DNA of 64,000 nt from Lachnospiraceae bacterium UBA3762 (GCA_002371615.1 DFGA01000033.1:14184-78183), one strand, 5' to 3'. Shown: positions 26,987 to 49,913, counted from the stretch's first letter. A program made the numbers and translations. Notes: generated by a model from the sequence alone, not told the origin.

Positions 26987-29228
<2,242 letters not shown>

Positions 29229-33473: not shown

Positions 33474-33502
33474 TGGCTTTCAATAATAGAAGGGAGCATA
33501 TT

Positions 33503-34216
33503 ATGCAAAAGATCAACTTGTACAGGGAACTTGATGCAAATTCATATCCCGGAAGGGGTATTGTGATAGGCCGTTCTGCTGACGGTAAGTACGCAGTAAC
33601 GGCGTATTTTATTATGGGAAGAAGCACAAACTCGAGAAACAGGGTGTTCGTTGAGGATGGAGACGGTATCAGGACAAAAGCCTTCGATGAGAGCAAGCTT
33701 GAGGATCCTTCGCTGATCATATACGCTCCCGTAAGAGTACTGAACAATACTACGATCGTGACAAACGGTGACCAGACAGATACGATCTATGACGGATTAA
33801 ATGAGGGAAAATCATTCGAGGAGTCTTTACGGAGCCGGGAATTTGAGCCGGATGCTCCCAACTATACACCTCGCATTTCCGGCATCATGGAGATCGAGAA
33901 AGGTAAGTATACATATGCTCTTTCAATCTTAAAGAGTGATAACGGAAACCCCGAACAATGCCTGAGATACACATATTCATATGATAATCCGCTTGCCGGA
34001 GAAGGGCATTTCATTCATACATACATGAAGGACGGCAATCCGCTTCCGTCATTTGAGGGAGAGCCCAAATTCGTTGCTATGGAAGGCGATATAGATACCT
34101 TTACAAAGAAGGTTTGGGAGAGTCTCAATCTTGACAACAAGGTGTCACTATTTGTCAGATATATTGACATTGCGACGGGAGAGGTCAAGACAAGGATTTG
34201 CAATAAGTATTCATAA
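33503..34216 (+). CDS. IMP cyclohydrolase, PurO-like (stand-alone)
   Basis: YPGRGIVIGRSADGKYAVTAYFIMGRSTNSRNRVF resembles archaeal-type PurO. It sits directly upstream of an AICARFT-only PurH. The ATG at 33503 follows AGGGAG. Confidence 0.7.
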   Translation: MQKINLYRELDANSYPGRGIVIGRSADGKYAVTAYFIMGRSTNSRNRVFVEDGDGIRTKAFDESKLEDPSLIIYAPVRVLNNTTIVTNGDQTDTIYDGLNEGKSFEESLRSREFEPDAPNYTPRISGIMEIEKGKYTYALSILKSDNGNPEQCLRYTYSYDNPLAGEGHFIHTYMKDGNPLPSFEGEPKFVAMEGDIDTFTKKVWESLNLDNKVSLFVRYIDIATGEVKTRICNKYS

Positions 34217-34280
34217 GGATACTGGGTCAAAAATGTGTCAAAAAGAACCGTCCCTTTTGACAAGAAAAAAGGAGATTATT

Positions 34281-35459
34281 ATGAAAGAACTGGAGCTCAA
34301 ATACGGCTGTAATCCCAATCAGAAGCCATCAAAAATATACAGAGCCGACGGTGGAGAACTTCCGATAACCGTGCTGAACGGCCGTCCCGGATATATCAAT
34401 CTTCTGGATGCTTTTAACGGCTGGCAGCTTGTGAGGGAGCTTAAGGCTGCAACGGGATATCCTGCCGCAACTTCATTTAAGCATGTAAGCCCTGCGGGAG
34501 CGGCAATCGGTAAGCCTCTTTCGGACACGTTGAAGAAGATATACTTTGTTGATGATCTCGGTGAACTCTCGCCGCTTGCATGCGCATATGCAAGAGCAAG
34601 GGGTGCTGACAGAATGTCTTCATTCGGCGATTTTGTGGCATTATCCGATGTATGCGATGTGCCTACTGCCCGGATACTGAAAAGGGAAGTATCCGACGGT
34701 ATAATAGCTCCGGGATACGAGCCGGAGGCACTTGAAATACTCTCCGCCAAGAAGAAAGGGAACTATGCCGTAATACAGATAGATCCCGAATACAGACCTG
34801 CACCCATCGAGCACAAAGAGGTGTTTGGTATAACTTTCGAGCAGGGAAGGAACGAGATCGAAATAAACGAATCACTGCTTGAAAACATCGTTACCAGGAA
34901 CAGGAACCTGCCGGATGAGGCCAAACATGATCTTCTGATATCGCTTATTACGCTTAAGTATACACAGTCCAATTCGGTCTGCTATGTCAAGGACGGTCAG
35001 GCAATAGGCATTGGCGCGGGACAGCAGTCAAGAGTTCACTGCACACGTCTTGCCGGACAAAAGGCTGACAATTGGCTTCTGCGCCAGAGCCCGAAGGTTA
35101 TGGATCTTCAGTTCGCCGAAGGTATTGGTCGTGCGGATCGTGATAATGCGATAGACAATTATATAGGCGATACATATATGGATGTTATCGGGGATAATGT
35201 ATGGCAGAAGTATTTTGCGGTACGGCCGGAAAGTTATACAGCTGAAGAGAAGAGAAAATGGCTGGATCAGATGAGCGGAGTGTCTCTTGGGTCCGATGCA
35301 TTCTTCCCGTTCCGTGACAACATAGACAGGGGTGCGAAGAGCGGGGTGTCATATATCGTGCAGCCGGGGGGATCGGTCAGAGATGATCTTGTTATTGAGG
35401 CCTGCGATGAGTATGGTATTGTAATGGTTTGTAACGGAGTAAGGCTGTTCCACCACTAA
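34281..35459 (+). CDS. purH: AICAR formyltransferase (PurH C-terminal domain only)
   Basis: LKYGCNPNQ...FKHVSPAGAA...GAGQQSRVHC...SDAFFPFRD...QPGGS. The ATG at 34281 follows AAGGAG. Confidence 0.85.
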   Translation: MKELELKYGCNPNQKPSKIYRADGGELPITVLNGRPGYINLLDAFNGWQLVRELKAATGYPAATSFKHVSPAGAAIGKPLSDTLKKIYFVDDLGELSPLACAYARARGADRMSSFGDFVALSDVCDVPTARILKREVSDGIIAPGYEPEALEILSAKKKGNYAVIQIDPEYRPAPIEHKEVFGITFEQGRNEIEINESLLENIVTRNRNLPDEAKHDLLISLITLKYTQSNSVCYVKDGQAIGIGAGQQSRVHCTRLAGQKADNWLLRQSPKVMDLQFAEGIGRADRDNAIDNYIGDTYMDVIGDNVWQKYFAVRPESYTAEEKRKWLDQMSGVSLGSDAFFPFRDNIDRGAKSGVSYIVQPGGSVRDDLVIEACDEYGIVMVCNGVRLFHH

Positions 35460-35489: not shown

Positions 35490-37298
35490 ATGCGTAAACA
35501 GATTAAGATTCTTTTGATAGTTTTGAACATTATTTTCATATCTATGATCGGATTAATCAGAACCGCTGACAAGTCGGATTCTGTTGTATTCTCTATGGTC
35601 CCGGCATTGATCTGCGTTATTGTTCTTTTGTTCGGAAAATACAAGCTGTTTGAGGACAGGAGTAATATAAAATGGGACATCCTGCTTACCGTGATGTTTA
35701 TACTGATGCTTTCGCTTGAAGATGTATTGAAGACTATGCGTTCCATGGGCGCGGAACCATTCAATACGGTTTTTAAAATAGTGTACTTTCCGGTGTTGAT
35801 AATCGCATTGATCATTGATACAGATTACGCATTATTGGCAGCTGCCCATGCAGGAGCCTTGAGTCAGACCGTGAAGGATAAAACGGATGGAAGGGATTAT
35901 TTGGGGGACAAAAAGTTTCTGGGGATTTACTATCCTGTATGGTTATATATAGGTCTGACTTTTGTGTTTGTAATAGCATATTTTCCGGGACTTATGAACA
36001 GTGATTTTGAGAAACAGTGGATATGGGGTGAGGGACCGACTGTATGGAGTGATTGGCACACGGTAGGTTTTTTGATGTTTGTAAAACTGTGTACAGCGGT
36101 CATACATAAACCGTTTATGATCACAATTGTTCAGGTTTTGATGTATTATCTGACAGCAAATTATGCCGTTAGCGTATTGAACAGGAATTTTCCGGAGCGG
36201 CGCAGGGTCGGATGGATATTCATATGTGTGTATATGTTGTTTGGAATATACAGTTGTATGTATATGTCGGAGGTAAGAAAAGATAACTGCAGCACCCCGA
36301 TGATGCTTGCGTTTGCCGTAGCCCTGCTCGATCACTCCATGAGAAGCGAACACACAAAAAAGGAATATATTAATTTGGGCGTGTTTGCGTTTCTTGCATC
36401 ATTGTTCAGACATTCACTTTGGGAAATAGTATTGATAACACTGATGCTTACCATTGTCTGCGAAGCACTGGATCGCAGTACTGATAAAGATACAAAAAAG
36501 AAGACTGTTAGAAATCTGTGCGTAGTAGTGGCTACAACGATTGGAGCTTTTTTGATAGTGACGGAAGGGATCGGATTTGGGATTCTGAAAGCAGAGAGAA
36601 ATCCGGCCTATGTAAAATACACGATTCCGATGAATCTTGCAGCCTCTCTGGCCTATAGGAGCCGGGAAACCGGTCTGTATATAGAAGACGATATTGTGAA
36701 TAAAATGGAACAGATTATCCCGATGGAAAAATGGGCAGAGTATTATTGCCCGTACGATGCCGACACAACCGACAGGCCATGGCACGAGATCGGAGATAAT
36801 GTATATAAGCTTAATGATCCGCAAGTTGCCCGTGACATTATTGATGTAGATATGTATTATTTAACACACTATCCCAAGCAGTTTGTTCTTTCTTTTTTTG
36901 ATGTTAATTCCATAGTCTGGGAAATGGCTGTTGCATCGGATCTTGTCATGTATAGTCCCGGTCTTGCGACCGAACATTATGAGATTCACCATATGAGAAA
37001 AGGAGAGTTTTTCTATTTTGCCGAGAGTTGCAAGAAATTTATGTCATCGTTTGCTGTAGCAAGAGCTGTTGTATACAGGGGTGGGATCTATCTGTTTTTA
37101 CTGGCAATGATTACAGTCATATTGATAAAAAAGCAAAGGTTCAAAGTGCTTGCCTCAATGATGCCTATATTGCTATACGCCCTTGCACTTATGATTTCAA
37201 TTCCTCAGGAAGGGTCGCATTATATTATGGCGTTCCCTTTGTTTGCTGCATTATTTGGTGTTACATCATTTATGGTAGCGAGTAGGGAATCTCTCTGA
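35490..37298 (+). CDS. Large polytopic membrane protein, first gene of the CotH/VTC/DUF4956 operon
   Basis: 602 aa with many TM segments. Family unassigned. Only 11 nt separate it from the first CotH gene. Confidence 0.5.
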   Translation: MRKQIKILLIVLNIIFISMIGLIRTADKSDSVVFSMVPALICVIVLLFGKYKLFEDRSNIKWDILLTVMFILMLSLEDVLKTMRSMGAEPFNTVFKIVYFPVLIIALIIDTDYALLAAAHAGALSQTVKDKTDGRDYLGDKKFLGIYYPVWLYIGLTFVFVIAYFPGLMNSDFEKQWIWGEGPTVWSDWHTVGFLMFVKLCTAVIHKPFMITIVQVLMYYLTANYAVSVLNRNFPERRRVGWIFICVYMLFGIYSCMYMSEVRKDNCSTPMMLAFAVALLDHSMRSEHTKKEYINLGVFAFLASLFRHSLWEIVLITLMLTIVCEALDRSTDKDTKKKTVRNLCVVVATTIGAFLIVTEGIGFGILKAERNPAYVKYTIPMNLAASLAYRSRETGLYIEDDIVNKMEQIIPMEKWAEYYCPYDADTTDRPWHEIGDNVYKLNDPQVARDIIDVDMYYLTHYPKQFVLSFFDVNSIVWEMAVASDLVMYSPGLATEHYEIHHMRKGEFFYFAESCKKFMSSFAVARAVVYRGGIYLFLLAMITVILIKKQRFKVLASMMPILLYALALMISIPQEGSHYIMAFPLFAALFGVTSFMVASRESL

Positions 37299-37309
37299 GA
37301 ATAATACCA

Positions 37310-39310
37310 ATGAAAGCGCCAACTATAGTCAGAAAATACTTTCACATCATTTATGGTCTGCTCTTTGCCATTATTGTCGGGTTAAGCGGACTGGCAATTG
37401 TCCGGCAACAAAGGTCATCTGTTTTGATCAATGAAGTGTGTACGTCCAACGTTTCATGTTGCGAGGATGCAGACGGCAAATATCCTGATTGGATTGAATT
37501 GTTTAATCCTACAGACGAAACAGTTGACCTGTCGGGATATGTAATCAACAAATCCGCAGATTTACAAAAAGATAAGTTTGTGATTCCGGATGGAACAGTG
37601 ATCGCACCGGGGGCTTTTTATCTCTTCAATCCGGGATTTGTCCTGTCCTCCGAAGGATGCGTGTTGAATTTGGTCGATAAGAGAGGACAGTATAAGGATC
37701 ATGTCAGTGTTCCGGCATTGAAACATGATACAACCTACTCAAGATTCGACGATGGGTCATATGTGTGGGAGGTAAAGGTTCCGACTCCCGGATATGAGAA
37801 TTCTGAAGGAGATACGTTAGGCCGGCTTATTGAAGGGGAGGTATTGGCTTCTGCTCAACCCGGCTTTTATGACAACGGTTTTGATCTGACGCTGAAACCA
37901 TCAAATTGGGGGAGACGGGTGTATTATACTGTAGACGGAAGTGATCCGGTTAAATATGGACTGCTGTACGATAAGCCTGTTCATATATATGACCGGTCTT
38001 CCGAGAAAAACGTATACTCAGTCATACCTGATGTTTCTCTTGATTATATCGAGGGAAATGCTACACCACCGCAGTATACACTTGACAAGTGTATGGTGGT
38101 AAGGGCGGTTTCGAAGGATCTTCTCGGAAGATATACGGATATTAATACATTCACGTATTTTATAGGTTTCGACCAAAAAACTGCGTATGATGATATCAAT
38201 GTTGTGTCAATATCTGCAGATCCTGATGACCTGTTTTCTTATGAGAACGGGATAATGGTATTGGGAAAGAATTATGATGAATATGACAAAGCAGGACAAC
38301 CGGAGGATTATGAAGGAGACAATTCCAATTTTACAGTGCGGGGGAGACGATCGGAAAGAGATATATGCCTGGAGATATATGATAGTGATCGTAACAGGGT
38401 CCTCTCGGGAAATGCCGGGATGAGGATCAAAGGATTGTCATCAAGGTGGGATGTTCAAAAGAGTTTTTCGGTGTTTTTCAGAAAGGCATATGGAAGTAAC
38501 TATAAAGAGAAATTCAGTTTAGATGGCATTGATTTTGACCTGCATTCATTTGCCCTGGACAAGTGCGGACAGGATACTTCGACTAAAATGGTTGATACGA
38601 TCATGTCGGATTGTATGAGCAAAACCGGATGTGCAACTGCAAAACGTGTGCCGTGCTGCCTGTTTTTGAACGGGGAGTATTGGGGCTTTTATTGGATATC
38701 GGAACGTTTTGATGCGTCATTTCTTGCTGACCGGTATGGTGTAAATGCTGATTGTGTTGAGTATATGGATTGGGATGATATAGATAATTGGGATCCGGAG
38801 TTCTTTGACAGGGACTCACTTATAGACTATTATGCATCGAATATTATAGTTGCCCACAGAGGCGACTGGCCACCATTTAATTTCCGGTTCTGGAGAACAG
38901 TAACCGAAGACGAAACGGAATTTGGTGATGGTAAATACAGACCGGTGATTTTTGACATGAATTCAAGTTCAATGATGACCCCGGATTATAATTCTTTTGA
39001 GGTACTTATGAGTGTTTATCCATTCCAAAACGTAGTAGAGGAAGATGAGCGGTTTGCGGCAGATCTTGTCTCAAGAATTGACTCAATGAGTAAGAACGAG
39101 TTTTCTCCGGATAAGGTGTTGCCCATGATCAATTTATTATATGACCGCATGAAAGAACAGATGATCCTCGACAGAATGAGGTATTCAAACTGCAGTTCAA
39201 AAGAAGCGGAAGAATCGTTTGAAGAGAGTGTTGAGATTATCAGGAATTTCTACAGATTCAGGGGAGATTATCTTGAAAAATACAAGGACAGTTTTCTGAA
39301 TGAACAGTAG
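37310..39310 (+). CDS. Membrane-anchored lamin-tail-domain (LTD) + CotH kinase-family protein (paralogue 1)
   Basis: N-terminal basic stretch plus a TM segment. LTD motif LINEVCTSN...YPDWIELFNPTDETVDLSGY. Long CotH-like region (YYTVDGSDP...FLNGEYWGFYW...). Confidence 0.8.
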   Translation: MKAPTIVRKYFHIIYGLLFAIIVGLSGLAIVRQQRSSVLINEVCTSNVSCCEDADGKYPDWIELFNPTDETVDLSGYVINKSADLQKDKFVIPDGTVIAPGAFYLFNPGFVLSSEGCVLNLVDKRGQYKDHVSVPALKHDTTYSRFDDGSYVWEVKVPTPGYENSEGDTLGRLIEGEVLASAQPGFYDNGFDLTLKPSNWGRRVYYTVDGSDPVKYGLLYDKPVHIYDRSSEKNVYSVIPDVSLDYIEGNATPPQYTLDKCMVVRAVSKDLLGRYTDINTFTYFIGFDQKTAYDDINVVSISADPDDLFSYENGIMVLGKNYDEYDKAGQPEDYEGDNSNFTVRGRRSERDICLEIYDSDRNRVLSGNAGMRIKGLSSRWDVQKSFSVFFRKAYGSNYKEKFSLDGIDFDLHSFALDKCGQDTSTKMVDTIMSDCMSKTGCATAKRVPCCLFLNGEYWGFYWISERFDASFLADRYGVNADCVEYMDWDDIDNWDPEFFDRDSLIDYYASNIIVAHRGDWPPFNFRFWRTVTEDETEFGDGKYRPVIFDMNSSSMMTPDYNSFEVLMSVYPFQNVVEEDERFAADLVSRIDSMSKNEFSPDKVLPMINLLYDRMKEQMILDRMRYSNCSSKEAEESFEESVEIIRNFYRFRGDYLEKYKDSFLNEQ

Positions 39311-41330
39311 GATGAGAAGGATTACACTATTTTTCAGAATACATGCATATACTGCTATGATCCTGATCTTTGTCGTAATTACGATAGGGGTGGGTATAGT
39401 TACAGTCAGAAATTCACAGGACAACGTTGTTATAAACGAGGTTTGTACTTCTAATGTCAGATGCTGTGAGGATGAAAACGGAAAATATCCGGACTGGATA
39501 GAAATATATAACCCGACATCACGGGATATTGACCTGTCCGGCTATATTATTAATGATTCGGCTGATTTGAAAAAGGAAAAATACATAGTGCCCCAGGGTA
39601 CAGTTCTGGCTGCGGGGTCATACTATTTGTTTGACCCTCTGTTTTCTTTATCATCTGAAGGGTGTACTGTTAATATACTTGATGACAGGGAACGTTATGT
39701 AGACAGGGTGAAAATACCGAGACTGAAGTACGATACAACATATGGAAGGCTGAAGGATGGTTCGGGTGAATGGGGAGTCAAAATGCCGACTCCCGGTTAT
39801 TCCAACACTGACGGAGAGGATATTATTCCGACTATAAGCGGTAGTGTGAATGCCTCTTACGACTCAGGATTCTACTCCGATGAAATCGAGTTGGCTTTGT
39901 ATTCTTCTGATTACGGAAGGGATATTTATTATACAACTGACGGAAGTGATCCTGTGCATAACGGTACTCTTTACGAAGACCCCATCCGCATATATGATCG
40001 TTCGGAGGAGAAAAATGTCTATTCCGCAATTCCGGAGGTGTCCCTCGATTATATTGAGAATAATGATCCGCTTCCTTCATTTCCGGTTGATAAGTGTACT
40101 GTTGTCAGGGCTGTTGCAAAGGATCACCTGGGAAGGTATACGGATGTTAGTACGCATACATATTTCATAGGTTTCGACGAAAAGAAAGCATATGATAATA
40201 TGGCAGTAGTATCTGTTGCTTCCGACCCGGAAGATCTGTTCTCGGATGGAAACGGAATAATGGTACTCGGGGACAAGTATGCCCGGTATATTGAGGAAGG
40301 GAAGCCAGAGGAGTATGAGGCTGCAAAGGCTAATTTCGCATCAAAAGGGCGGCAGTCTGAAAGAGAGACTTATGTCCAAATATTTGATGAAAAGCATGTC
40401 CCCGTTCTCGCTTCTTCTGCCGGGATAAGAATAAAAGGCAAAACTTCAAGGTGGGACGTTCAAAAGAGTTTTAGCGTTATTTTTAGAAGAGCCTACAGCG
40501 GTTATTCAAAGAATCATTTTACGCTGGACGGATTGGATTTTGATATTCATTCATTTAATTTGGAAAAATGTGGGCAGGACGCAAAAACCAAGATGAAGGA
40601 TGCGATCATGGAAACCTGTATGCGAGATACGGAATGCGTTACCATGAAGATGGTACCATGTTGTATTTTTTTAGACGGAGAATACTTTGGGTTTTACTGG
40701 TTAACAGAACGGTTGGATAACAGTTTTATAGCTTCGGAATACGGAGTTGGTAAGGATAATGTTATAATTACAAGCGTATTTGATATCGAGAATGGCGTTG
40801 AATGGTGGAGTGACAAACTGGCGGACAGAAAGAGCATGATAGATTATTATGCGGGGAATATAATTGTATCGCATGAAAATGACTGGCCCGGAGCAAATTA
40901 CAAGGTATGGCGCACAATAGAGGATGATGGAACAAAATATGGTAATGCAAAATGGCGACCTATGATTTTTGATATGAATTCATCGTCGCTGAAGACTCCT
41001 GACTTTGATTCGTTTGAATATCTTATGGGATTCTATCCGTTTATGGATATGTCCTTGAGTGAAGATAATATGTTCAAAGAAGAACTTGTTGAGCGGATAG
41101 ATGAGATGGTTCAAAATGAATTTTCTCAGGACAGGGTTTTATCGCTTACAGACCAGTTTCACGACCGGATAAAAGATCAGATGATCCTTGACAGGATGAG
41201 GTATTCGGACTGTAGTGCGGAGGAAGCAGAGGAATACTTTGAAGAAGGGGTATCCTCTATAAGAAAGTTTTTCCGGGACAGGTACGACTATTTGAAGATA
41301 TATGAGGGTAAGTATTTAGATGGAAAATGA
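39300..41330 (+). CDS. Membrane-anchored LTD + CotH kinase-family protein (paralogue 2)
   Basis: Collinear with 37310..39310 (VINEVCTSNVRCCEDENGKYPDWIEIYNPTSRDIDLSGY...FLDGEYFGFYW). Overlaps the upstream gene by 11 nt. Confidence 0.8.
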   Translation: MNSRMRRITLFFRIHAYTAMILIFVVITIGVGIVTVRNSQDNVVINEVCTSNVRCCEDENGKYPDWIEIYNPTSRDIDLSGYIINDSADLKKEKYIVPQGTVLAAGSYYLFDPLFSLSSEGCTVNILDDRERYVDRVKIPRLKYDTTYGRLKDGSGEWGVKMPTPGYSNTDGEDIIPTISGSVNASYDSGFYSDEIELALYSSDYGRDIYYTTDGSDPVHNGTLYEDPIRIYDRSEEKNVYSAIPEVSLDYIENNDPLPSFPVDKCTVVRAVAKDHLGRYTDVSTHTYFIGFDEKKAYDNMAVVSVASDPEDLFSDGNGIMVLGDKYARYIEEGKPEEYEAAKANFASKGRQSERETYVQIFDEKHVPVLASSAGIRIKGKTSRWDVQKSFSVIFRRAYSGYSKNHFTLDGLDFDIHSFNLEKCGQDAKTKMKDAIMETCMRDTECVTMKMVPCCIFLDGEYFGFYWLTERLDNSFIASEYGVGKDNVIITSVFDIENGVEWWSDKLADRKSMIDYYAGNIIVSHENDWPGANYKVWRTIEDDGTKYGNAKWRPMIFDMNSSSLKTPDFDSFEYLMGFYPFMDMSLSEDNMFKEELVERIDEMVQNEFSQDRVLSLTDQFHDRIKDQMILDRMRYSDCSAEEAEEYFEEGVSSIRKFFRDRYDYLKIYEGKYLDGK

Positions 41331-42024
41331 CAACGTTTTTCGACATGAATTAAAATACCTTATCAACAGGCGTGAGATGGATTGCTGCCTGAGCAGATTG
41401 TCTGAGTTCGCCGAAGCGGATATTCATGCTAAAAATGGCACTTATGCTGTTAGAAGCCTGTATTTTGATGATCAGTACAGATCCGCATATAATGATAAGG
41501 AAAGTGGAGTAAGATCGAGGGCTAAGTACCGGATTAGGGTATATGACCTGGATCAGGGATATATAACACTTGAAAAAAAGATAAAAGAAGGGATGTACGT
41601 CAGGAAAGAATCAGCTTATTTATCAAAGAGTGAGTATGATATGATTATGTCGGATAATACGGATTTCCTTCTTGCAAGAAGCGAACGGGTGGCAAATGAT
41701 TTTGCAATAGAATGCAGGGTTAATGGGTTACATCCTGAGGTGATAGTAGATTACGACAGAATACCGTTTGTTTATGCCTACGGAAATGTACGTATTACAT
41801 TTGACATGAATATCAGGTCTTCATTTGATAAACTTGATGTGTTTGCGGTAAGTACTCCTGCTTACAACGTTCTTGGGGAGGATGAACTTGTGATGGAGGT
41901 CAAATACACGGAGTATCTGCCGGATATTATCAGAGTTGTGTTGCCCGATTCCGGTTGCAGGATGGCAGTGTCAAAATACGTTTTATGCGATGATGTAAAA
42001 CTTTTATTTAGGGAGGATATGTAA
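41320..42024 (+). CDS. VTC-domain protein (triphosphate-tunnel / polyphosphate-polymerase-like catalytic domain), copy 1
   Basis: 234 aa with no TM segment. FRHELKYLI at the N-terminus, then VRSLYFDD...AKYRIRVY...LEKKIK...MEVKY. This basic/acidic beta-strand pattern is typical of bacterial VTC-domain proteins. Confidence 0.75.
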   Translation: MENDNVFRHELKYLINRREMDCCLSRLSEFAEADIHAKNGTYAVRSLYFDDQYRSAYNDKESGVRSRAKYRIRVYDLDQGYITLEKKIKEGMYVRKESAYLSKSEYDMIMSDNTDFLLARSERVANDFAIECRVNGLHPEVIVDYDRIPFVYAYGNVRITFDMNIRSSFDKLDVFAVSTPAYNVLGEDELVMEVKYTEYLPDIIRVVLPDSGCRMAVSKYVLCDDVKLLFREDM

Positions 42025-42025
42025 A

Positions 42026-42706
42026 ATGAGTGTAAAGGATATGATCAAAAAATCGGTCTTGGAGTCAGCGGTTTACAACCAGTCAATGGCATCCGGAACG
42101 TATGTCACTATAGTAGTTGATATGATTGTTGCACTTATTATAGGGTATATAATTTACAAAATATACAAAAGGTTTTTTGCCGGGGTAGTGTATAGCAGAT
42201 TTTTTGCGGTAACACTTATTGGAATGACTGTACTCACATGTATGGTAACCCTTGCGATTTCCACTAATATCGTTATTTCACTGGGTATGGTCGGTGCACT
42301 TTCTATCGTAAGATATCGAACTGCAATAAAGGAGCCGCTTGATATTATGTATCTATTTTGGGCAATAACCGAGGGAATAACTATAGGCGCCAGTATGTAC
42401 ATCCTTGCTTCTATAGGAATGCTCGTAATGCTTATTGTAGTAATCGGGATGAGTAAGATGAAAGAGAACAGAGGAACATTTGTTATGATTGTGCATCTGA
42501 ATGATGATGCCGCCAAAGAAAAAATCCTTGATGTATTAAAATCATATGTATACTCCGTGAAGAACAGCATTCTGCGTGAAGATACAACTGAGCTGACCAT
42601 TCAGATTGATATGAATAAAGATGACGGTATAGCCGAAAAGGTTCGTGCTATATCAGGTGTTAATGATGTAGCGCTGATCCAATATAACGGGGAATACCAT
42701 GGCTAG
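42026..42706 (+). CDS. DUF4956-family membrane protein, copy 1
   Basis: About 4 TM segments, the hallmark SLGMVGALSIVRYRTAIKEPLD, and a soluble C-terminal domain of about 85 aa. Confidence 0.75.
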   Translation: MSVKDMIKKSVLESAVYNQSMASGTYVTIVVDMIVALIIGYIIYKIYKRFFAGVVYSRFFAVTLIGMTVLTCMVTLAISTNIVISLGMVGALSIVRYRTAIKEPLDIMYLFWAITEGITIGASMYILASIGMLVMLIVVIGMSKMKENRGTFVMIVHLNDDAAKEKILDVLKSYVYSVKNSILREDTTELTIQIDMNKDDGIAEKVRAISGVNDVALIQYNGEYHG

Positions 42707-44828
42707 ATCTGCTGATACAAGACGTACGGCATTAATCGCTTTTTTATTTTTGCTCTTGGCAGTAACGTTTTCGGGAACTATTCTAAGTAACAAAAATGGG
42801 AATGATCTCTATATTTCTGAGGTTTGCCCGCATAATGAAAATGTGATCCACGATTCGGTAGGATTTTACCAGGATTATATAGTTTTGACCAACCCGTCCG
42901 ATCATATGATAGATCTTGAAGGATACGGTTTGTCGGATAAAAGGTCGGAATTAAGGGAGTTTGTATTTTCTGGTTCGGTAATACAACCGCTGGGGACTCT
43001 TGTTGTATGGACAGACTATCCTTCGCAGTTTGGCGACGGCTATTATGATGAAGACGCAATTTACACGGATTTTAAAATAAGTGATCATGAGTACCTGTAT
43101 TTGACAGATCCTTACGGAAGAGTTATTGATTCCCTGCGAATCCCCAATATGTCATCAAATGAAGTGTTGCTAAGAGACAAGCCCAATGCCAGAGGATCTG
43201 TCGGAACGTCAGGCTTTATCAAAAAGTCCACACCGGTTGTTTCAAAGGATATTGAACCACCGAGGATGTCGGCAGACTCGGGTTTTTATGAACATCCGTT
43301 TGAATTATCAATGTCAGGAAAGTATGATGTTTATTATACTGACGATGGAAGCAATCCTTATTTGTATGGGAAACCTTATGAGGGACAGATACAGATAATC
43401 GATAGAAGTAACCTGCCTGATATATACAGTGTTTTAGGTCCTGTATCGGCAGCATACGAACAATTTTATCCTGATAAGCCTGTTGCAAAATCAACGATCA
43501 TTCGTGCTGTCTCCCAAAGAGATGATGGAACATTTTCCGAGGAGTCGGTTGCAACTTTTTTCGTGGGTAAGGAAGTAAGAGACATTTGTTCGGACAGCTA
43601 TATCGTATCAATGGTTTCCGACCCGGATGGTTTGTTTTCTGATTATGATGGGATATACATGAGTGGGATCACCTGGGAGCTAAACTCCGAAAAGGTTGCA
43701 TCTATGGGTGCTGATCCTGTATACGCTCCCGCCAATTACAATATGCGGGGTAAAGGATGGAGAAGGGGAGCAAAGCTTATGCTTTTTGACCCGGACGGAA
43801 ATTGTCTGTATGATGAAGATGATATAGTAAGTATACGCGGTAAATCCTCCCGCGCGGTTGTACAGAAGGGGTTTAACATAAGGCCCCAAACGGATGATGG
43901 AACGGTGTTTAACGGGTTAATAGACGGTGCCGGTGATATATTAATGTTGCGCACGGGAAGTGCAGAAGATGTTTTTTTGACGAATTTCAGGGATGCGTTG
44001 AATGCAAGAATAGCGGATAACCTTAAGGTCGGTGCGCAAAGGTCGCTATGCTGCCAGATGTTTTTGAATGGGGAATACTGGGGATGTTACAGCCTTCAGG
44101 AACATCTGGATACAAGCTTTATCGAAGCAAGATATAATGTTTCTGCCGAAAATGTGAATCTCATCAAGATTGATGGCGAACCGGAGGTTCTTTCCGAACT
44201 GACAAGTGATCTGAATATGTATCAGGATGTGGAAAGATTTCTGGCAGAACATGATCTTTCGGTCGATGCCGATTACAAACAGTTTTGTGATATGGTGGAT
44301 ATAGACAGTGCTATTGATTATTACTGCGCCGAGATCTTTTTCGCAAATGATGACGCGTATCTGGGGAATAAGGCTCTTTGGAGAGCCCGGAATGTTGGAC
44401 CGAATCCCTATGAGGATGGTAAATGGAGGTTTCTTTTGTTTGACCTGGATAATACGGACGGATATGCTCCTAATGCCGGTGCAGATATAGATTCGTTCAT
44501 AGACGGAAGTTATGCGGGATATAATGCAACAGATGATTTGTTTTTTTCCGGTTTGATAAAAAACTCTGATTTCAGACAACGGTTCAGGGAGCGATTTGAA
44601 GAACTATTGGCAAATGATTTTTCCTATGAAACCATAGAAAAGATTATAGATGAGTTTGAAAACAGGTATGAAGAGCCGATGGTATCATCTGTCAGACGAT
44701 TTCATGATGCTGAGTTTACAGAAAAGCAGTATCACGAAAATGTCCGGGTTGTCAGGGAATTCTTCAGGGAAAGAGGCAGATATATAGGCGGGTATCTTGA
44801 GCTGCATATGGGAGAGTCAGGAAGATGA
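42699..44828 (+). CDS. Membrane-anchored LTD + CotH kinase-family protein (paralogue 3, divergent)
   Basis: N-terminal TM segment, LYISEVCPHN...YIVLTNPSDHMIDLEGY (LTD), YYTDDGSNP, FLNGEYWGCY. Overlaps the upstream gene by 8 nt. Confidence 0.75.
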   Translation: MARSADTRRTALIAFLFLLLAVTFSGTILSNKNGNDLYISEVCPHNENVIHDSVGFYQDYIVLTNPSDHMIDLEGYGLSDKRSELREFVFSGSVIQPLGTLVVWTDYPSQFGDGYYDEDAIYTDFKISDHEYLYLTDPYGRVIDSLRIPNMSSNEVLLRDKPNARGSVGTSGFIKKSTPVVSKDIEPPRMSADSGFYEHPFELSMSGKYDVYYTDDGSNPYLYGKPYEGQIQIIDRSNLPDIYSVLGPVSAAYEQFYPDKPVAKSTIIRAVSQRDDGTFSEESVATFFVGKEVRDICSDSYIVSMVSDPDGLFSDYDGIYMSGITWELNSEKVASMGADPVYAPANYNMRGKGWRRGAKLMLFDPDGNCLYDEDDIVSIRGKSSRAVVQKGFNIRPQTDDGTVFNGLIDGAGDILMLRTGSAEDVFLTNFRDALNARIADNLKVGAQRSLCCQMFLNGEYWGCYSLQEHLDTSFIEARYNVSAENVNLIKIDGEPEVLSELTSDLNMYQDVERFLAEHDLSVDADYKQFCDMVDIDSAIDYYCAEIFFANDDAYLGNKALWRARNVGPNPYEDGKWRFLLFDLDNTDGYAPNAGADIDSFIDGSYAGYNATDDLFFSGLIKNSDFRQRFRERFEELLANDFSYETIEKIIDEFENRYEEPMVSSVRRFHDAEFTEKQYHENVRVVREFFRERGRYIGGYLELHMGESGR

Positions 44829-45523
44829 GGCATGAAGAAAAGTATATCTGCTCGGAGAGACAGTTGGAAATCATAGAACACCGCCTTAAAACGATTCTGC
44901 CATTTGATGCAAATCAGGAAGGCAGCGACTACGGGATACGCAGTTTGTATTTCGATACGGTGGATGACAGGATGTACCATGAGAGCCTGTATGGGGTTGA
45001 CAGACGCAGTAAGTATCGTATACGCTTTTACAATATGTCGGAAGAATTATTCAGAATGGAGCGAAAAGATGCTGTAGGAAGGATGAAGCAAAAGCATTCG
45101 TCGGTTATTGATAAGAATACGGTCCACTCCCTGGTTGAAGGAAGGCCGATTCATGACAGTGAGGATGAAGTTGTTCATGAGGTCCATCTCCTGCAGAAGA
45201 CGGAAGGGCTTCATCCTGTAGTTATAGTTGATTACAGAAGATGCGCATTTACCTGTCCTACAGGTAATGTGAGAATAACGATAGATCGTGATATTTCATG
45301 TACCCATTGTGTATATGATTTTATGGAAGACCATCCGATACTGTTTCCAGTCATGCCATACAGAAAACATATTCTTGAGGTTAAGTATGACGGAATATTG
45401 CCGGGATATATAGTGTCAGCTGTCGATGTAGGGAATTTGGAGCAGGTTTCGGTGTCAAAATATGTTTTTTCAAGAAATGTGATTGAAGGAAACGGAAGAA
45501 GGGAATACGGATATGAGTTTTAA
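44825..45523 (+). CDS. VTC-domain protein, copy 2
   Basis: MRHEEKYIC...IRSLYFDT...SKYRIRFY...LEVKY is collinear with 41320..42024. Confidence 0.75.
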   Translation: MRHEEKYICSERQLEIIEHRLKTILPFDANQEGSDYGIRSLYFDTVDDRMYHESLYGVDRRSKYRIRFYNMSEELFRMERKDAVGRMKQKHSSVIDKNTVHSLVEGRPIHDSEDEVVHEVHLLQKTEGLHPVVIVDYRRCAFTCPTGNVRITIDRDISCTHCVYDFMEDHPILFPVMPYRKHILEVKYDGILPGYIVSAVDVGNLEQVSVSKYVFSRNVIEGNGRREYGYEF

Positions 45524-46184
45524 AGATATGATCAGAAATTCGGTATTGAGTAACTTCAGTAGCGACATTACACTACAGAGGATAGCAATTGTTCTGCTTT
45601 TGTCACTTGTTCTGGGGATATATGTGTTTATAGTTTACAGGATGACTGTCAATAATGAGTTTTATTCAAAAGATTATAACAGAACCCTTGTATTGATGGC
45701 GGTTGTGACGGCAGGAATCGTACTGGCGGTACAATCCAATCTGGTAATTTCTCTCGGTATGGTCGGAGCACTTTCAATCGTAAGATTCCGAACGGCGATA
45801 AAGAGTTCGATAGATCTTTTCTTCCTGTTTTGGGCTATCAGCATAGGAATTATATGCGGAGCAGGATTATACTTTCTTGCAGCTGTATTATGCGTTGTTG
45901 TAACGGCCGGATTGTATATAACGGGTCGGATGGCCAGTCCGGTGTCACTTGGCCTGCTGATTGTTAATTGCAGTACATCCGAAACAGCAGACAGAGTAAT
46001 AGAGAGGGTAAAACCCGTTACAAGATTTCTCAGAATGAAGAATAAGACTGTATCCAAAGATAATGTGGAACTTATCCTTGAGTACAAAGCGAATGATGAA
46101 AAGGCTCTGGAAAGTGTTCTTAAAGAGATTGACGATGTTACCAGATATGCTTTTATGAATTATGATAGGGAGACAAGAATCTAG
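45513..46184 (+). CDS. DUF4956-family membrane protein, copy 2
   Basis: SLGMVGALSIVRFRTAIKSSID is collinear with 42026..42706. The ATG at 45513 overlaps the VTC stop. Confidence 0.75.
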   Translation: MSFKDMIRNSVLSNFSSDITLQRIAIVLLLSLVLGIYVFIVYRMTVNNEFYSKDYNRTLVLMAVVTAGIVLAVQSNLVISLGMVGALSIVRFRTAIKSSIDLFFLFWAISIGIICGAGLYFLAAVLCVVVTAGLYITGRMASPVSLGLLIVNCSTSETADRVIERVKPVTRFLRMKNKTVSKDNVELILEYKANDEKALESVLKEIDDVTRYAFMNYDRETRI

Positions 46185-46194: not shown

Positions 46195-46223
46195 TTGACA
46201 AGAATTGGCGTATCTTATATAAT
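46195..46223 (+). promoter_or_regulatory. Consensus sigma-A promoter for the tRNA-Val/tRNA-Met pair
   Basis: TTGACA (46195-46200), exact 17-nt spacer, TATAAT (46218-46223). It lies about 25 nt upstream of the tRNA 5' end. Confidence 0.65.
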
Positions 46224-46247: not shown

Positions 46248-46320
46248 GGGATCTTAGCTCAGCTGGGAGAGCATCTGCCTTACAAGCAGAGGGTCATAGG
46301 TTCGAGCCCTATAGGTCCCA
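46248..46320 (+). tRNA. tRNA-Val (anticodon TAC)
   Basis: I folded the cloverleaf by hand. Acceptor GGGATCT/AGGTCCC, anticodon loop CTTACAA, T-arm ATAGGTTCGAGCCCTAT. CCA is not encoded. Confidence 0.9.
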
Positions 46321-46349
46321 TATTGTCACGATCGAAGATCGCGACCTTT

Positions 46350-46423
46350 GGCGAGGTGGCTCAACTGGCTAGAGCGTCCGGTTCATACCCGGGAGGTTAA
46401 GAGTTCAAGTCTCTTCCTCGCTA
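46350..46423 (+). tRNA. tRNA-Met (anticodon CAT), elongator-like
   Basis: GGCGAGGTGGCTCAACTGGCTAGAGCGTCCGGTTCATACCCGGGAGGTTAAGAGTTCAAGTCTCTTCCTCGCTA. It lacks the initiator 1:72 mismatch. I cannot exclude the lysidine-type Ile2 identity. Confidence 0.8.
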
Positions 46424-46444
46424 TTAAAAAGGAAATATGTAAAT

Positions 46445-46472
46445 ACCGCAAACAGTGAGTTTGCGGTATTTT
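46445..46472 (+). terminator. Rho-independent terminator after the tRNA pair
   Basis: ACCGCAAAC-AGTGA-GTTTGCGGT followed by ATTTT. Confidence 0.7.
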
Positions 46473-46490
46473 GGTATGGGAGCGGGTGAG

Positions 46491-48080
46491 ATGGAAGATA
46501 AAAAATATAAAAATCTTATCTTTGCAGGGTTGATGGCTGCTGTTGCAGCACTGTTTGCGGTCACGCGATTATACAGGCTGGATATTGTTCCTTTCGGTCC
46601 TTACAGGATGCACATTGATGAATTAGGTGCGGCTTATGATGCATTTTGCATTTCGGATTACGGAGTAGACCAGTTCCTATACCGTATGCCGGTATATTTT
46701 AAGTGTTTCGGTGAAGGGCAGAATGCTCTTTATACATATCTGGCTGTTATTGCTTTCAGATTAGGCGGTATTTCCATATTCAGTTTCAGGCTTCCTGCCG
46801 TTATATGTGCAGCGGGAGCTTTTGCTGCACTGTTTTTTATGGTCAGGGATCTTCTGGATCGTTGGTATGCCATCGTTGCCCTTATTCTGATGACGGTAAT
46901 GCCTGTATTTATGATGAGTGAACACTGGGGCCTGGAAGCTTATCTGATGATGAGTTTTGTTATTATATCCATGGCGTTCCAGATACGTGCCGTCATTACG
47001 AACAGACCGGTTTATTATGCTCTGGCGGGTACGTTCTGGGGTCTGACACTATACACATATGCGATGTCATATATTATTGTGCCGCTGTTTCTTCTGGCTT
47101 CATTTATCATTCTGCTCATATACAAAAAACTCAGTTTAAAAAACATACTGATGGTCGGAATACCTCTTATTATTCTCGGATTTCCCCTGCTTTTGCAACA
47201 GTTTGTTATGATGGGCGTTCTGAAGCCCTTTTCGCTTTTCGGGGTGATTGATTTCTGGAATACTTCTCATTACAGGGCAGATGAAATATCTCCTGCCTTT
47301 GTACCCGAAAACCTGATTATGTCGTTTAAGTACACATATGTTGCCGACCGGTCCGCCTATGACGCTAATGCGACATACGGAACCATGTATTATATCTCGA
47401 TCCCGTTTATTCTTACCGGAATGATAGCCTCCGCATATGCGGTAATTAAGGACGTAAGAGCCGGAGTACTTAACCTGTGGTTGTTTAACTGGATGTTTTT
47501 CCTTGTGGCAAGGGTATTTCTACTGTTTGTGAAGTATCCGAATATAAACCGTATCAACGGTATCTTCCCGGCATATCTTTTATTTGCCGTATATGGCATT
47601 ATGACCGTGGCAGGCAAAATAAGAAAGAAAGCAGTATTTTTTGCAGTATTGTGTCTTGCCTATATGATATGCTTTCTGTCTTTTTCCAAGTATTTCTATT
47701 CCCATGACGGCCTGCAAAATGATGCCTATGATATAGGAGACAGTCTCGGGTGTGATCTGGAGGCGGGAGCGGCCGCACAACTTGCCAAAAAGATAGCAAT
47801 GGGGAAACCGGTTTGTGCCATGTTAAATGATGGCTGGCGCAGAGATCTTTCTATTGCCTTATATACAGAAACTTCACCTTATGATTTTAACAGAGACCAT
47901 GAACCGCATGACACTGTTTATAACGGGTTGGTTTGGGAAATGCCGGAGGAACTTGATCTGACGGGTGGTACGGTTTACCTTATCGATAATGAACTTAGTC
48001 ATATTACATCTTACCTGGTTACTGATGAAGGGTTTTCGGTGGATATCACGTATCCGGATTTTACAGTGGTTTACAAATAG
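46491..48080 (+). CDS. GT-C fold glycosyltransferase (ArnT/PMT_2-like); paralogue of 19724..21388
   Basis: HIDELGAAYD, MPVYF, GEGQN, MSEHWGLEAYLM, LYTYAMSYIIVPLFL. The track's GTG at 46455 lies inside the terminator hairpin, so the ATG at 46476 or 46491 is more plausible. Confidence 0.65.
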   Translation: MEDKKYKNLIFAGLMAAVAALFAVTRLYRLDIVPFGPYRMHIDELGAAYDAFCISDYGVDQFLYRMPVYFKCFGEGQNALYTYLAVIAFRLGGISIFSFRLPAVICAAGAFAALFFMVRDLLDRWYAIVALILMTVMPVFMMSEHWGLEAYLMMSFVIISMAFQIRAVITNRPVYYALAGTFWGLTLYTYAMSYIIVPLFLLASFIILLIYKKLSLKNILMVGIPLIILGFPLLLQQFVMMGVLKPFSLFGVIDFWNTSHYRADEISPAFVPENLIMSFKYTYVADRSAYDANATYGTMYYISIPFILTGMIASAYAVIKDVRAGVLNLWLFNWMFFLVARVFLLFVKYPNINRINGIFPAYLLFAVYGIMTVAGKIRKKAVFFAVLCLAYMICFLSFSKYFYSHDGLQNDAYDIGDSLGCDLEAGAAAQLAKKIAMGKPVCAMLNDGWRRDLSIALYTETSPYDFNRDHEPHDTVYNGLVWEMPEELDLTGGTVYLIDNELSHITSYLVTDEGFSVDITYPDFTVVYK

Positions 48081-48095: not shown

Positions 48096-49913
48096 ATGAG
48101 CAGATTGAATTTAACAGATGAGAACATCAATAAAAAACTTCGTATAGCAGCTCTTGTATTGATCATTATTCTGATTTCGTGGCCGTTTTTGTTTATGGAC
48201 CTTGCCAAGGGACACGATATGCTGTTCCACCTTCAGCGTATCGAGGGAATACGTCAGGATGTGTCATTGAGACATTTTCCTGTCCGGATGCAATCGGGAT
48301 GGATGAGAGGATACGGATACCCCGTTTCAATACTGTACGGAGATGTATTTTTGTATATCGGGGCTGTGTTCAGAAAACTCGGTTTTCCTGTTATGGTTTC
48401 ATTCAGACTGTTTATGGTATGTGTGAATACTGCGGCTGTTCTCATATCTTATTTTTCGTTTAAAGTGTTTAATAAAGGCTGGGCACCCGTAATAGCTACA
48501 GCAGCATATACTACATCCTCATATCGCCTTGTTGACGAGTATGTACGGTCGGCGATAGGCGAAACCCTTGCTATAGTATTCTTTCCGGCGGTTGCCGCAT
48601 GTATATACCTTATCCTTACAACTAAAGACTATCACAGAAGGCGTAAATATACAGTGGTGCTTTCACTCTCATTCCTGGCCGTTATCTGCTCTCACACATT
48701 AACGACAAGTATGATGCTTGTTGTATTGGTTCTGTTCGGACCCGTTAGTCTTGTGCTGTTCGGAATTAAAGGAGAACGTATCAGACAGATGGGAAATGTT
48801 GTAATGGCCGGAATACTCACGATCCTTATGTCGGCTTTTTTTGTCATTCCTTTTCTGGATACATACCTTAATGCGGGGATAGCATTTGCTCTTAAGCGAA
48901 AAAACAGTATTCAGGGCGAAGGGCCTGGAATTACCGATCTGTTTGAGTTTGTATGCAATCCGTTCGGGGGAACGAATGGCGGCTCAATTCAACAGACTCC
49001 GGGGCCTGTGCTTATATGCTTTCTTATTATTGCGATAGTTGCATGTATAGTTTCCGTAATAAGAAAGACCGATTTTCCTAACAGGAACCGTATTGTATTT
49101 GAGACGGTAGCGAGCCTGATACTGCTGCTTATGTCTTCCGCTTATTTTCCGTGGAATTTTATAGAAGATAATGTCCCTGTACTTGGCGGAATTCTTACGG
49201 CAATAGAATTTCCCATGCGTTACCTTGCGTTTGCCATAGTATTTATGGCATTGCTTACGGGTGATATGATCAGGCTGATAGGTGACAGGCTTGGTTCGGG
49301 CAGTTCCGGGATAACTTCAGGATGTGCGGTTAAGGCAGTATGCATCGTGATAATGTGCGCCCTGTTTATATTTAATGTTGCCCAGATATGCTTCCACAGC
49401 CGTACTTACGAAAAAAGAGCCGATTATAAAAACGTCGAAGACCTTGGTGAGTGGAGATATTATGCGATGGACTTCCGGCTCGAGAACACGACGGTTGATG
49501 ATCTGCCGACCGGCCTTGTTCATGAGGGTATGCTCAGCATGGAGGTGCTCTCAAGGGACAGCAATGAGTTCCTGATCGCGTGTGTTACAGGACCTGACTA
49601 TGGTTGGATACAGCTTCCGGTGTTTAATTACCCGTATTATCATGCGGCGGATCTTGAAAACCCCAAAATGGAATTTGAGATACATGATGGTGGAAACAGA
49701 ACTGTCGGTGTATTACTTCCTGCAAATTATGAAGGGATACTCCATGTGTACTGGCAGGAGCCGGTATTCTGGAGAGTTTCCGAGGTGGTATCATATATAA
49801 CATTTGCACTGTGCATTCTGTATCTGTTAGCCATATCCGATAAAGATAATGGCATTAAAAGGATTTATAACAGGTTAAGTAAAAATGGGACTGATAAAGA
49901 GTATCAAAAATGA
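48096..49913 (+). CDS. Large polytopic membrane protein, GT-C-like; paralogue of 13490..15676
   Basis: GHDMLFHLQRIEGIRQDVSLRHFPVRMQSGWMRGYGYPVSILYGDVFLYIGAVF aligns by eye with the 13490 protein. Confidence 0.6.
   Translation: MSRLNLTDENINKKLRIAALVLIIILISWPFLFMDLAKGHDMLFHLQRIEGIRQDVSLRHFPVRMQSGWMRGYGYPVSILYGDVFLYIGAVFRKLGFPVMVSFRLFMVCVNTAAVLISYFSFKVFNKGWAPVIATAAYTTSSYRLVDEYVRSAIGETLAIVFFPAVAACIYLILTTKDYHRRRKYTVVLSLSFLAVICSHTLTTSMMLVVLVLFGPVSLVLFGIKGERIRQMGNVVMAGILTILMSAFFVIPFLDTYLNAGIAFALKRKNSIQGEGPGITDLFEFVCNPFGGTNGGSIQQTPGPVLICFLIIAIVACIVSVIRKTDFPNRNRIVFETVASLILLLMSSAYFPWNFIEDNVPVLGGILTAIEFPMRYLAFAIVFMALLTGDMIRLIGDRLGSGSSGITSGCAVKAVCIVIMCALFIFNVAQICFHSRTYEKRADYKNVEDLGEWRYYAMDFRLENTTVDDLPTGLVHEGMLSMEVLSRDSNEFLIACVTGPDYGWIQLPVFNYPYYHAADLENPKMEFEIHDGGNRTVGVLLPANYEGILHVYWQEPVFWRVSEVVSYITFALCILYLLAISDKDNGIKRIYNRLSKNGTDKEYQK

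Follow-up and report, generated by a model that had tools for sequence, protein, structure and literature searches.

Three gene families, encoding a CotH protein, a protein with a polyphosphate polymerase (VTC) domain, and a membrane protein of the DUF4956 family, have been described side by side as accessory genes next to the pelDEADAFG loci of Gram-positive bacteria (Whitfield et al. 2020, bioRxiv 10.1101/768473) and in NELoc-2 of Clostridium perfringens (PMC2879425). In Streptococcus intermedius, the trio consists of SIR_1594 (cotH), SIR_1593 (polyphosphate-polymerase domain), and SIR_1592 (DUF4956), and deletion of the DUF4956 or the CotH gene cut aggregation in artificial sputum medium by >50% and altered Pel levels (mBio 2025, PMC12345266); the authors of that study stated that the trio could not be found outside Pel loci. 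We describe here a locus in a 64,000-nucleotide (nt) stretch of DNA from Lachnospiraceae bacterium UBA3762, an organism of the gut or rumen type (the whole stretch is called the window below, and coordinates are counted in it unless a contig or another genome is named), where Pfam places CotH genes and the families VTC (PF09359) and DUF4956 (PF16316) next to each other in one operon. A Pfam scan of nearly all window open reading frames (ORFs) of at least 100 amino acids (aa) recovered no pel family, and PelG is absent from the 99.9%-complete genome. A linkage of this locus to Pel was therefore rejected, and the published statement on the restriction of the trio to Pel loci does not hold generally. 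Judged from its sequence, the locus is a Pel-independent member of a trio that is already in print. To this we add the presence of the trio in a genome without a Pel system, the catalytic residues of all three of its CotH paralogues, an exchange of CotH for a second kind of partner (Cthe_2159), and the agreement of VTC lineages with the type of partner. We regard the predicted anatomy of the modules as secure, with a Vtc4-like enzyme in the cytoplasm, a small membrane protein, and, facing outward from its anchor, an enzyme with intact kinase catalytic residues, all of them inherited jointly as units.

ORF calling recovered eight closely packed genes on the + strand between 35490 and 46184:

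35490 to 37298, + strand: 602-aa membrane protein with about 12 transmembrane helices (12 hydrophobic segments), the first gene of the run, ending 11 nt before CotH1
37310 to 39310, + strand: CotH1, 666 aa (ORF and Pfam)
39300 to 41330, + strand: CotH2, 676 aa (ORF and Pfam)
41320 to 42024, + strand: VTCa, 234 aa, soluble, Vtc4-like, with the triphosphate tunnel fold and no transmembrane helix (Pfam VTC, E = 1.6e-32)
42026 to 42706, + strand: DUF4956a, 226 aa, four transmembrane helices and a C-terminal ACT-like domain (Pfam and hydropathy)
42699 to 44828, + strand: CotH3, 709 aa (ORF and Pfam)
44825 to 45523, + strand: VTCb, 232 aa, soluble (Pfam VTC, E = 6.3e-37)
45513 to 46184, + strand: DUF4956b, 223 aa with the ATG at 45513 as its start (a TTG at 45483 opens the longest ORF)

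The window carries two modules, CotH1-CotH2-VTCa-DUF4956a and CotH3-VTCb-DUF4956b. The spacings from CotH1 to DUF4956b are -11, -11, +1, -8, -4, and -11 nt, and these overlaps and near-zero gaps make translational coupling likely. Like the Pel accessory trio, the locus combines the three families side by side in a surface-polysaccharide context, and with the S. intermedius trio it further shares a CotH protein predicted to be secreted and a DUF4956 protein with four transmembrane helices and an ACT-like tail, as described for SIR_1592 (PMC12345266). Unlike the Pel accessory trio, it comprises two tandem modules, with a third elsewhere in the genome and a fourth in which Cthe_2159 replaces CotH; moreover, its CotH proteins have an N-terminal anchor, a lamin-tail domain (LTD), and a CHB_HEX_C domain, whereas the Pel-type CotH has a C-terminal FN3 domain.

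A preliminary description of the locus, made from the sequence, had pointed to adjacent VTC/DUF4956 pairs; Pfam bears this out, and comparison with 61 related genomes revealed the link to be nonrandom. These genomes yielded 102 VTC hits, 90 of which have a DUF4956 gene within 1 kb (directly downstream in 89 of the 90) and 64 a CotH gene within 10 kb. In 23 of the 38 hits without CotH, a Cthe_2159 gene directly follows DUF4956, and about half of the other 15 lie at or near contig ends. The outer partner of the VTC/DUF4956 pair is CotH or, alternatively, Cthe_2159. The UBA3762 genome contains four pairs, two in the window and two elsewhere. The third, on contig C47 (L008, 9157 to 13446, - strand), has the order GT2 glycosyltransferase-VTC-DUF4956-CotH, and its CotH gene, the fourth of the genome, encodes a 633-aa protein with LTD, CHB_HEX_C, and CotH domains. 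This gene is followed by those for a Flg_new-repeat protein and sugar epimerases, another surface-glycan context. The fourth pair, on contig C30 (L007, 6314 to 9409, - strand), has the order VTC-DUF4956-Cthe_2159 with no CotH nearby, and the Cthe_2159 protein (PF14262) is a 554-aa beta-helix protein with a basic start and one N-terminal transmembrane helix. It is also marked by very acidic Gly/Asp-rich repeats and by PEDMQM repeats.

In a maximum-likelihood tree inferred from 78 VTC proteins, sequences with the same type of partner group together; partner type changes 8 times along the tree, compared with 37.6 times in shuffles. Each of the four VTC proteins of the genome (VTCa and VTCb are 31% identical) belongs to a different clade with good support and a characteristic kind of partner: all members of the VTCa clade have a CotH1/2-type gene upstream (support of 98 in the Shimodaira-Hasegawa-like approximate likelihood ratio test [SH-aLRT]), and the VTCb clade has a CotH3-type gene upstream (SH-aLRT, 100). 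Synteny inherited within a single genus accounts for part of the clustering. The tree nonetheless shows the modules to be old paralogous units, inherited separately, and not recent duplicates. In a metagenome-assembled genome of a related member of the Lachnospiraceae, RGIG8400 (L011, 9263 to 20420), both modules are present in a rearranged form, with CotH3-VTCb-DUF4956b on one strand and a single CotH1/2-type gene, VTCa, DUF4956a, a 605-aa protein, and a PMT_2 protein on the other. The single gene in RGIG8400 marks CotH1 and CotH2 of the window as an old tandem duplication, and the arrangement shows that the CotH1/2-VTCa-DUF4956a module is the one linked to the 605-aa and PMT_2 membrane proteins, both of which are also encoded in the window (see below).

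Each CotH protein begins with a short basic segment (CotH1, MKAPTIVRKYFH...; CotH2, MNSRMRRITLFFRIH...; CotH3, MARSADTRRT...), followed by the one hydrophobic segment that a Kyte-Doolittle scan detected in it. The start of each protein had been read in the same way in the preliminary description, as had the succession of a lamin-tail module and a long CotH region, which Pfam recovered above cutoff in CotH1, CotH2, and CotH3 (LTD, 45.6, 49.7, and 47.8 bits, cutoff of 34.3; CotH [PF08757], 87.8, 88.7, and 148.6 bits, cutoff of 23.8). For CHB_HEX_C_1/Fn3_assoc, CotH1 and CotH2 score above the Pfam cutoff, and the CotH3 match falls short of it. The features are as follows:

CotH1, + strand: transmembrane helix at residues ~13 to 31 (nt 37346 to 37402; Kyte-Doolittle), LTD at 34 to 133, CHB_HEX_C/Fn3_assoc at 184 to 267, CotH domain from 372
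CotH2, + strand: transmembrane helix at residues 18 to 36 (nt 39351 to 39407; Kyte-Doolittle), LTD at 39 to 138, CHB_HEX_C/Fn3_assoc at 188 to 288, CotH domain from 376
CotH3, + strand: transmembrane helix at residues 11 to 29 (nt 42729 to 42785; Kyte-Doolittle), LTD at 32 to 147, Ig-like module at ~194 to 233, full-length CotH domain at 377 to 696

In CotH2 and CotH3, Lys and Arg are enriched before the helix, and Asp and Glu are enriched behind it; CotH1, in which R32 and R35 directly follow the helix, shows this bias less clearly. Among 120 CotH3 homologues, 94 have a strong N-terminal hydrophobic segment, with mean flanking charges of 2.9 Lys/Arg and 0.6 Asp/Glu before it and 1.2 Lys/Arg and 1.9 Asp/Glu after it, and the remaining 26 mostly have a weaker, signal-peptide-like segment or look truncated. 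Some homologues with LTD, CHB_HEX_C, and CotH domains additionally carry a dockerin (PF00404) or a type IX secretion system (T9SS) sorting tail (PF18962), and CotH-like proteins have been reported in cellulosomes (review, PMC12484212). Because of the charge bias across homologues, these tails, and the cellulosomal proteins, the outward orientation predicted for the kinase domains of CotH1, CotH2, and CotH3, which the preliminary description had also put forward, is well supported. The N-terminal helix may persist as a signal anchor or be removed as a signal peptide, and the kinase domain would lie outside in both cases. The dockerin-bearing CotH proteins of Ruminococcus, Clostridia, and anaerobic fungi likewise have extracellular CotH domains, and the bacterial ones share the LTD-CHB_HEX_C-CotH architecture; unlike the proteins of the window with their transmembrane anchor, they are held by dockerins, and the sampled cellulosomal loci lack an adjacent VTC/DUF4956 pair.

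We then compared the CotH domains with the CotH kinases of Bacillus. A profile built from 41 CotH sequences matched Bacillus cereus CotH in searches against the Protein Data Bank (PDB code 5JD9; E = 1.5e-9), with an alignment that pairs the lysine of VQK, the catalytic D-x4-N loop, and the first Asp in FD(L/M)(D/N) with Bacillus residues; against the same database, CotH3 alone recovered only levansucrase noise and a three-sequence profile nothing relevant. In the 5JD9 alignment, the metal-binding Asp follows the catalytic Asp at a distance of 23 residues, exactly as D251 follows D228 in Bacillus subtilis CotH, which is inactivated by D228Q and D251A (bioRxiv 10.1101/469122). The catalytic sets are as follows:

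CotH1: K384, E456, D519-x4-N524, and metal-binding D549
CotH2: K389, E461, D528-x4-N533, and metal-binding D558
CotH3: K390, E459, D552-x4-N557, and metal-binding D582

The residues K390, E459, N557, and D582 (CotH3 numbering) are invariant in the 41 diverse homologues, and the catalytic Asp is kept. One column of a MAFFT alignment placed G or N of CotH1 and CotH2 at the position of the catalytic Asp; this was traced to a one-column gap artifact, as the D-x4-N motif is intact in the ungapped sequences. The AlphaFold2 model of CotH3 (predicted local distance difference test [pLDDT] score of 91.5), the paralogue for which the fold comparison was made, gave B. cereus CotH (5JDA and 5JD9) as the top PDB matches in Foldseek (E = 2e-16; TM-score of 0.76 to 0.79). 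The Lys, D-x4-N, and metal-binding Asp of the Bacillus Ser/Thr spore coat kinase are thus retained in all three paralogues, at an identity of just ~16%, and the kinase fold proposed at the outset is found in the CotH3 model. Since catalytic residues and fold are both kept, the other option raised then, that these proteins are glycan binders and not kinases, is disfavored. The Bacillus CotH is not known to have a signal sequence and works in the ATP-rich cytoplasm of the mother cell.

As had also been noted early on, CotH1 and CotH2 are close to each other (56% identity) and CotH3 is divergent (28% identity to CotH1). Unlike Bacillus CotH, CotH1 and CotH2 match PF08757 in two pieces and miss model positions ~111 to 161: residues ~483 to 500 of CotH1 and ~488 to 509 of CotH2 stand against 490 to 533 of CotH3, a difference of ~50 residues that corresponds to two helices of the CotH3 model and sits between the N-lobe strands and the helix preceding the catalytic loop. 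The structural difference is real and might reflect another substrate or another kind of regulation. Together, the separate module lineage and the ~50-residue deficit of CotH1 and CotH2 make different substrates for CotH3 plausible.

VTCa and VTCb match the VTC family with 113.4 and 127.8 bits (Pfam cutoff of 23) over nearly the whole model, and yeast Vtc4 (PDB code 3G3Q) was also matched (E = 6e-8). Residues critical in Vtc4 are K200, R264, R266, K281, Y359, R361, E426, S457, and K458, of which K458 sets the active Vtc4 apart from the inactive Vtc2 and Vtc3 (bioRxiv 10.1101/2023.01.27.525886). The first six align to invariant residues in the four VTC paralogues of the genome (K6, R65, R67, K81, Y137, and R139 in VTCb). 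The C-terminal half of the VTC proteins found no match in the PDB; hence, the equivalents of E426, S457, and K458 (E185, S211, and K212 in VTCb) were matched solely by the invariant LEVK and SKY motifs. Shared with the yeast VTC complex (Vtc4/Vtc3 or Vtc2/Vtc1; PDB codes 3G3Q, 7YTJ, and 8I6V) are the catalytic tunnel domain with its critical basic residues (the equivalent of K458 by motif), the predicted cytoplasmic location, and the obligate pairing with a membrane protein. The present system, known from sequence, differs in that catalytic and membrane parts are separate proteins: VTCa and VTCb (232 to 234 aa) have no fused SPX domain, no DUF202-type helices, and no transmembrane segment, and no VTC-DUF4956 fusion occurs among 142 VTC hits (open frames of 63 to 347 aa). 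The genome encodes PPK1, and no PPK2 was recovered above cutoff; with PPK1 present, four extra membrane-linked VTC copies are unneeded for ordinary cytoplasmic polyphosphate.

The DUF4956 proteins have four hydrophobic helices, of which a simple scan gives three in DUF4956b, and the invariant motif SLGMVGALSIVR(F/Y)RTAIKxPxD. Their matches to MgtC/SapB remain below the cutoffs of both libraries (NCBIfam, 22.6 bits with a cutoff of 214, on residues 78 to 216 of DUF4956a; Pfam MgtC, 21.3 bits with a cutoff of 31.4), so that DUF4956 would be at most a distant relative of that family. Sequence searches against the PDB returned no match to DUF4956. In the poor AlphaFold2 model of DUF4956a (pLDDT score of 62), only the C-terminal tail gave usable fold matches: its beta-alpha-beta-beta-alpha-beta domain resembles ACT domains with a TM-score of 0.63 to 0.69 in this low-confidence model.

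An outward-facing kinase raises the question of its phosphoryl donor, and export of polyphosphate by the VTC/DUF4956 pair to feed CotH is our leading hypothesis, held tentatively and unproven. At the membrane, VTC would spend cytoplasmic ATP on the synthesis of polyphosphate, and a DUF4956 oligomer would thread the resulting chain to the outside, in the way known for the yeast VTC complex at the vacuolar membrane. Outside, the membrane-anchored partner would receive the polyphosphate, which CotH might use as a phosphoryl donor or attach as a chain; the target could be an envelope glycopolymer or a surface protein made by the neighboring GT-C type enzymes. As each outward partner has its own VTC/DUF4956 lineage, the hand-off would probably be local, within a membrane complex, and not through a free extracellular pool. 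More generally, the near-obligate VTC/DUF4956 pair, its CotH or Cthe_2159 partner, and the VTC tree that tracks the partner narrow the models toward a membrane complex and away from a diffusible donor. In favor of the hypothesis stand the predicted topology and extracellular-type domains of CotH, its kinase fold and catalytic residues, the Vtc4 residues of the VTC proteins, the presence of PPK1 besides the four VTC copies, the linkage and the VTC tree in the relatives, and, with less weight, the genome-level co-occurrence described below. Among 14 control genomes, CotH is found in B. subtilis, Bacteroides thetaiotaomicron, Corynebacterium glutamicum, and Methanosarcina acetivorans, and VTC and DUF4956 are found in the last three and, unlike in the UBA3762 genome, not in B. 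subtilis, the CotH of which works inside the mother cell. A coupling of cytoplasmic ATP to chemistry beyond the membrane by way of polyphosphate is the most economical reading of the locus, if still a doubtful one. Decidedly less probable is the full form of the idea, namely, a minimal, PPK-independent bacterial counterpart of VTC with the soluble polymerase docked onto a DUF4956 oligomer, an anchored CotH that uses the exported polyphosphate instead of ATP, and Cthe_2159 as a second class of receiver. A literature search found no paper proposing polyphosphate as the donor for exported CotH.

Several observations weigh against export to CotH. Viewed from the CotH side, among 47 LTD-CotH loci from named genomes with at least 8 kb on both flanks, 25 have VTC and DUF4956 within 3.5 kb and 22 have neither nearby. 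The latter come mainly from Ruminococcus/Oscillospiraceae, Butyrivibrio, Balneolales, Verrucomicrobiota, and Anaerolineae, and although 20 of the 22 genomes carry VTC elsewhere, 2 have no VTC at all. This rules out that exported CotH strictly requires a VTC gene next to it. Co-occurrence of CotH and VTC at the genome level (Fisher p = 4e-5) is weak evidence, since VTC is common without CotH (9 of 21 CotH-free relatives have it). The membrane partner is also of another kind than in yeast: DUF4956, MgtC/SapB-like with an ACT-like tail, is unrelated to the DUF202 channel helices, resembles a family with no known channel, and is known here from a model of low confidence. In S. intermedius, no change was reported on deletion of the VTC gene (PMC12345266). 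We know of no assay of a bacterial VTC, DUF4956, or exported CotH protein and of no kinase of the protein kinase or CotH fold that uses polyphosphate.

In the main rival reading, the CotH proteins would be outward kinases using a donor already present outside, with VTC/DUF4956 as a control or energizing module that exports nothing. The donor could be ATP released by the cells of a crowded gut community; another candidate is a lipid-linked pyrophosphate, for instance, undecaprenyl pyrophosphate, with which Escherichia coli LpxT phosphorylates periplasmic lipid A, and the tunnel enzyme with its ACT-domain membrane protein would sense a metabolite or hydrolyze a triphosphate to switch the partner across the membrane, comparable to the control of hydrolases by FtsEX. 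An ACT-like tail is typical of small-molecule sensing, MgtC/SapB-like helices are not a known pore, a dedicated VTC/DUF4956 lineage for each partner suits protein-protein coupling, and many genes for exported LTD-CotH proteins are remote from VTC genes. The tail, the MgtC-like helices, the nonkinase partner Cthe_2159, and the phenotype of DUF4956 and CotH deletions with none reported for VTC (PMC12345266) fit such a scheme at least as well as they fit export. We nevertheless rate it as unlikely, a little less probable than export to CotH: the match of the VTC proteins is specific to the polymerase family (E about 1e-37), with CYTH not among the matches listed up to an E value of 0.01, these proteins keep the Lys equivalent to Vtc4 K458 (by motif), a triphosphate-tunnel enzyme acting as a mechanical motor is without precedent, and free extracellular ATP is low and beyond the control of the cell. 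Alternatively, polyphosphate might be exported as a surface product in its own right, with CotH and Cthe_2159 binding, anchoring, trimming, or capping the chain on the cell wall and the CotH active site working on the chain itself. Such a role would account for the exchange of CotH and Cthe_2159 in the same operon position and for the setting among surface-polymer genes, and the Cthe_2159 family is described as binding the polyanion polygalacturonate. Extracellular, PPK-independent polyphosphate with blocked chain ends and no known synthase has been reported in the B. cereus group, and its authors found no Vtc4 homologue in that organism (2026 preprint, PMC13484657). This version would share its predicted synthesis and export steps with polyphosphate feeding of CotH; the full kinase catalytic set suggests phosphoryl transfer instead of binding, and the very acidic Cthe_2159 would be an odd polyanion binder unless metal ions bridge the two, and we regard it as quite improbable.

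Two further alternatives concern the CotH domains themselves. The CotH domains could be catalytically dead binding modules, adhesins or glycan binders, with an incidental link to VTC/DUF4956. A binding function has also been proposed for the CotH invasins of fungi and is in keeping with the lamin-tail and Ig-like modules, and the role of the cellulosomal homologues is described as unclear; set against the catalytic set kept across 41 homologues and three paralogues and the strongly nonrandom VTC/DUF4956 linkage, this appears very improbable. Or the topology could be wrong and the kinase domains cytoplasmic, with ordinary ATP as the donor, so that the donor problem would vanish. The topology call was based on simple hydropathy and charge counting, and the two Arg after the CotH1 helix dilute the bias, but the bias is consistent across 94 homologues, homologues of the same architecture bear dockerin or T9SS tails, lamin-tail and CHB_HEX_C modules are of the extracellular type, and the S. 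intermedius CotH homologue is predicted to be secreted, which together leave a cytoplasmic location barely credible.

Exported CotH proteins are widespread, in gut and rumen Firmicutes, cellulosomes, Bacteroidota, Actinomycetota, and archaea. The present locus offers a clean natural test case, with three paralogues predicted to be outward facing and catalytically intact, two modules, and no confounding Pel genes, and the third CotH module and the CotH-free module of the same genome are useful for comparison. If the full form of the idea holds, CotH would be the first enzyme of the protein kinase fold driven by polyphosphate, a general answer to phosphorylation outside the cytoplasm. Export by itself, if shown, would make the pair a candidate source of the extracellular polyphosphate now reported from Gram-positive bacteria; if export is refuted, the trio is still an unexplained and very common envelope module.

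The sequence downstream of the operon contains the following features:

46195 to 46223, + strand: sigma-70 consensus promoter, a perfect TTGACA-17-TATAAT, at the operon end before the tRNA genes
46248 to 46320, + strand: tRNA-Val(UAC), between the CotH operon and the PMT_2 gene
46349 to 46424, + strand: tRNA-Met(CAU), between the CotH operon and the PMT_2 gene
46455 to 48080, + strand: PMT_2-family (GT-C type) membrane glycosyltransferase (Pfam)
48096 to 49913, + strand: 605-aa protein with multiple transmembrane helices and no family match (Pfam and hydropathy)

In the first 58 kb of the window, cell-surface glycan functions predominate (Pfam), with several GT2 glycosyltransferases, a GT8 enzyme, GtrA/GtrII-type proteins, a second PMT_2, a GDP-mannose dehydratase, epimerases, a DegT aminotransferase, and a GT10 fucosyltransferase. 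PADLOC and NCBIfam scans added almost nothing and gave no defense-system match, and a reading of the locus as a defense system was rejected on this ground. Purine genes (for IMP dehydrogenase, an IMP cyclohydrolase-like protein, and AICARFT as its own ORF) are mixed among the surface-glycan genes at 26999 to 28453 and 33473 to 35459 and end 30 nt before the CotH operon. Also amid glycan genes, at a distance of ~2 kb on the upstream side of the operon, lies a gene for an 884-aa GGDEF-EAL protein (30819 to 33473), homologues of which occur in just 4 of 80 related loci; bifidobacterial Pel loci have been reported with a diguanylate cyclase/phosphodiesterase gene beside the same CotH/VTC/DUF4956 trio. 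The 602-aa protein that opens the operon has no match in Pfam, NCBIfam, or PADLOC, and its homologue is absent from the 80 related loci compared. It is one of six large ORFs (551 to 728 aa) without a Pfam match (1623 to 3608, 4986 to 6641, 13490 to 15676, 24412 to 26403, 35490 to 37298, and 48096 to 49913); for four of these, an NCBIfam scan likewise gave no match. Two were examined by hydropathy (35490 to 37298 and 48096 to 49913) and have 11 to 12 transmembrane segments, and the six are probably undescribed GT-C-like glycosyltransferases or polymerases.

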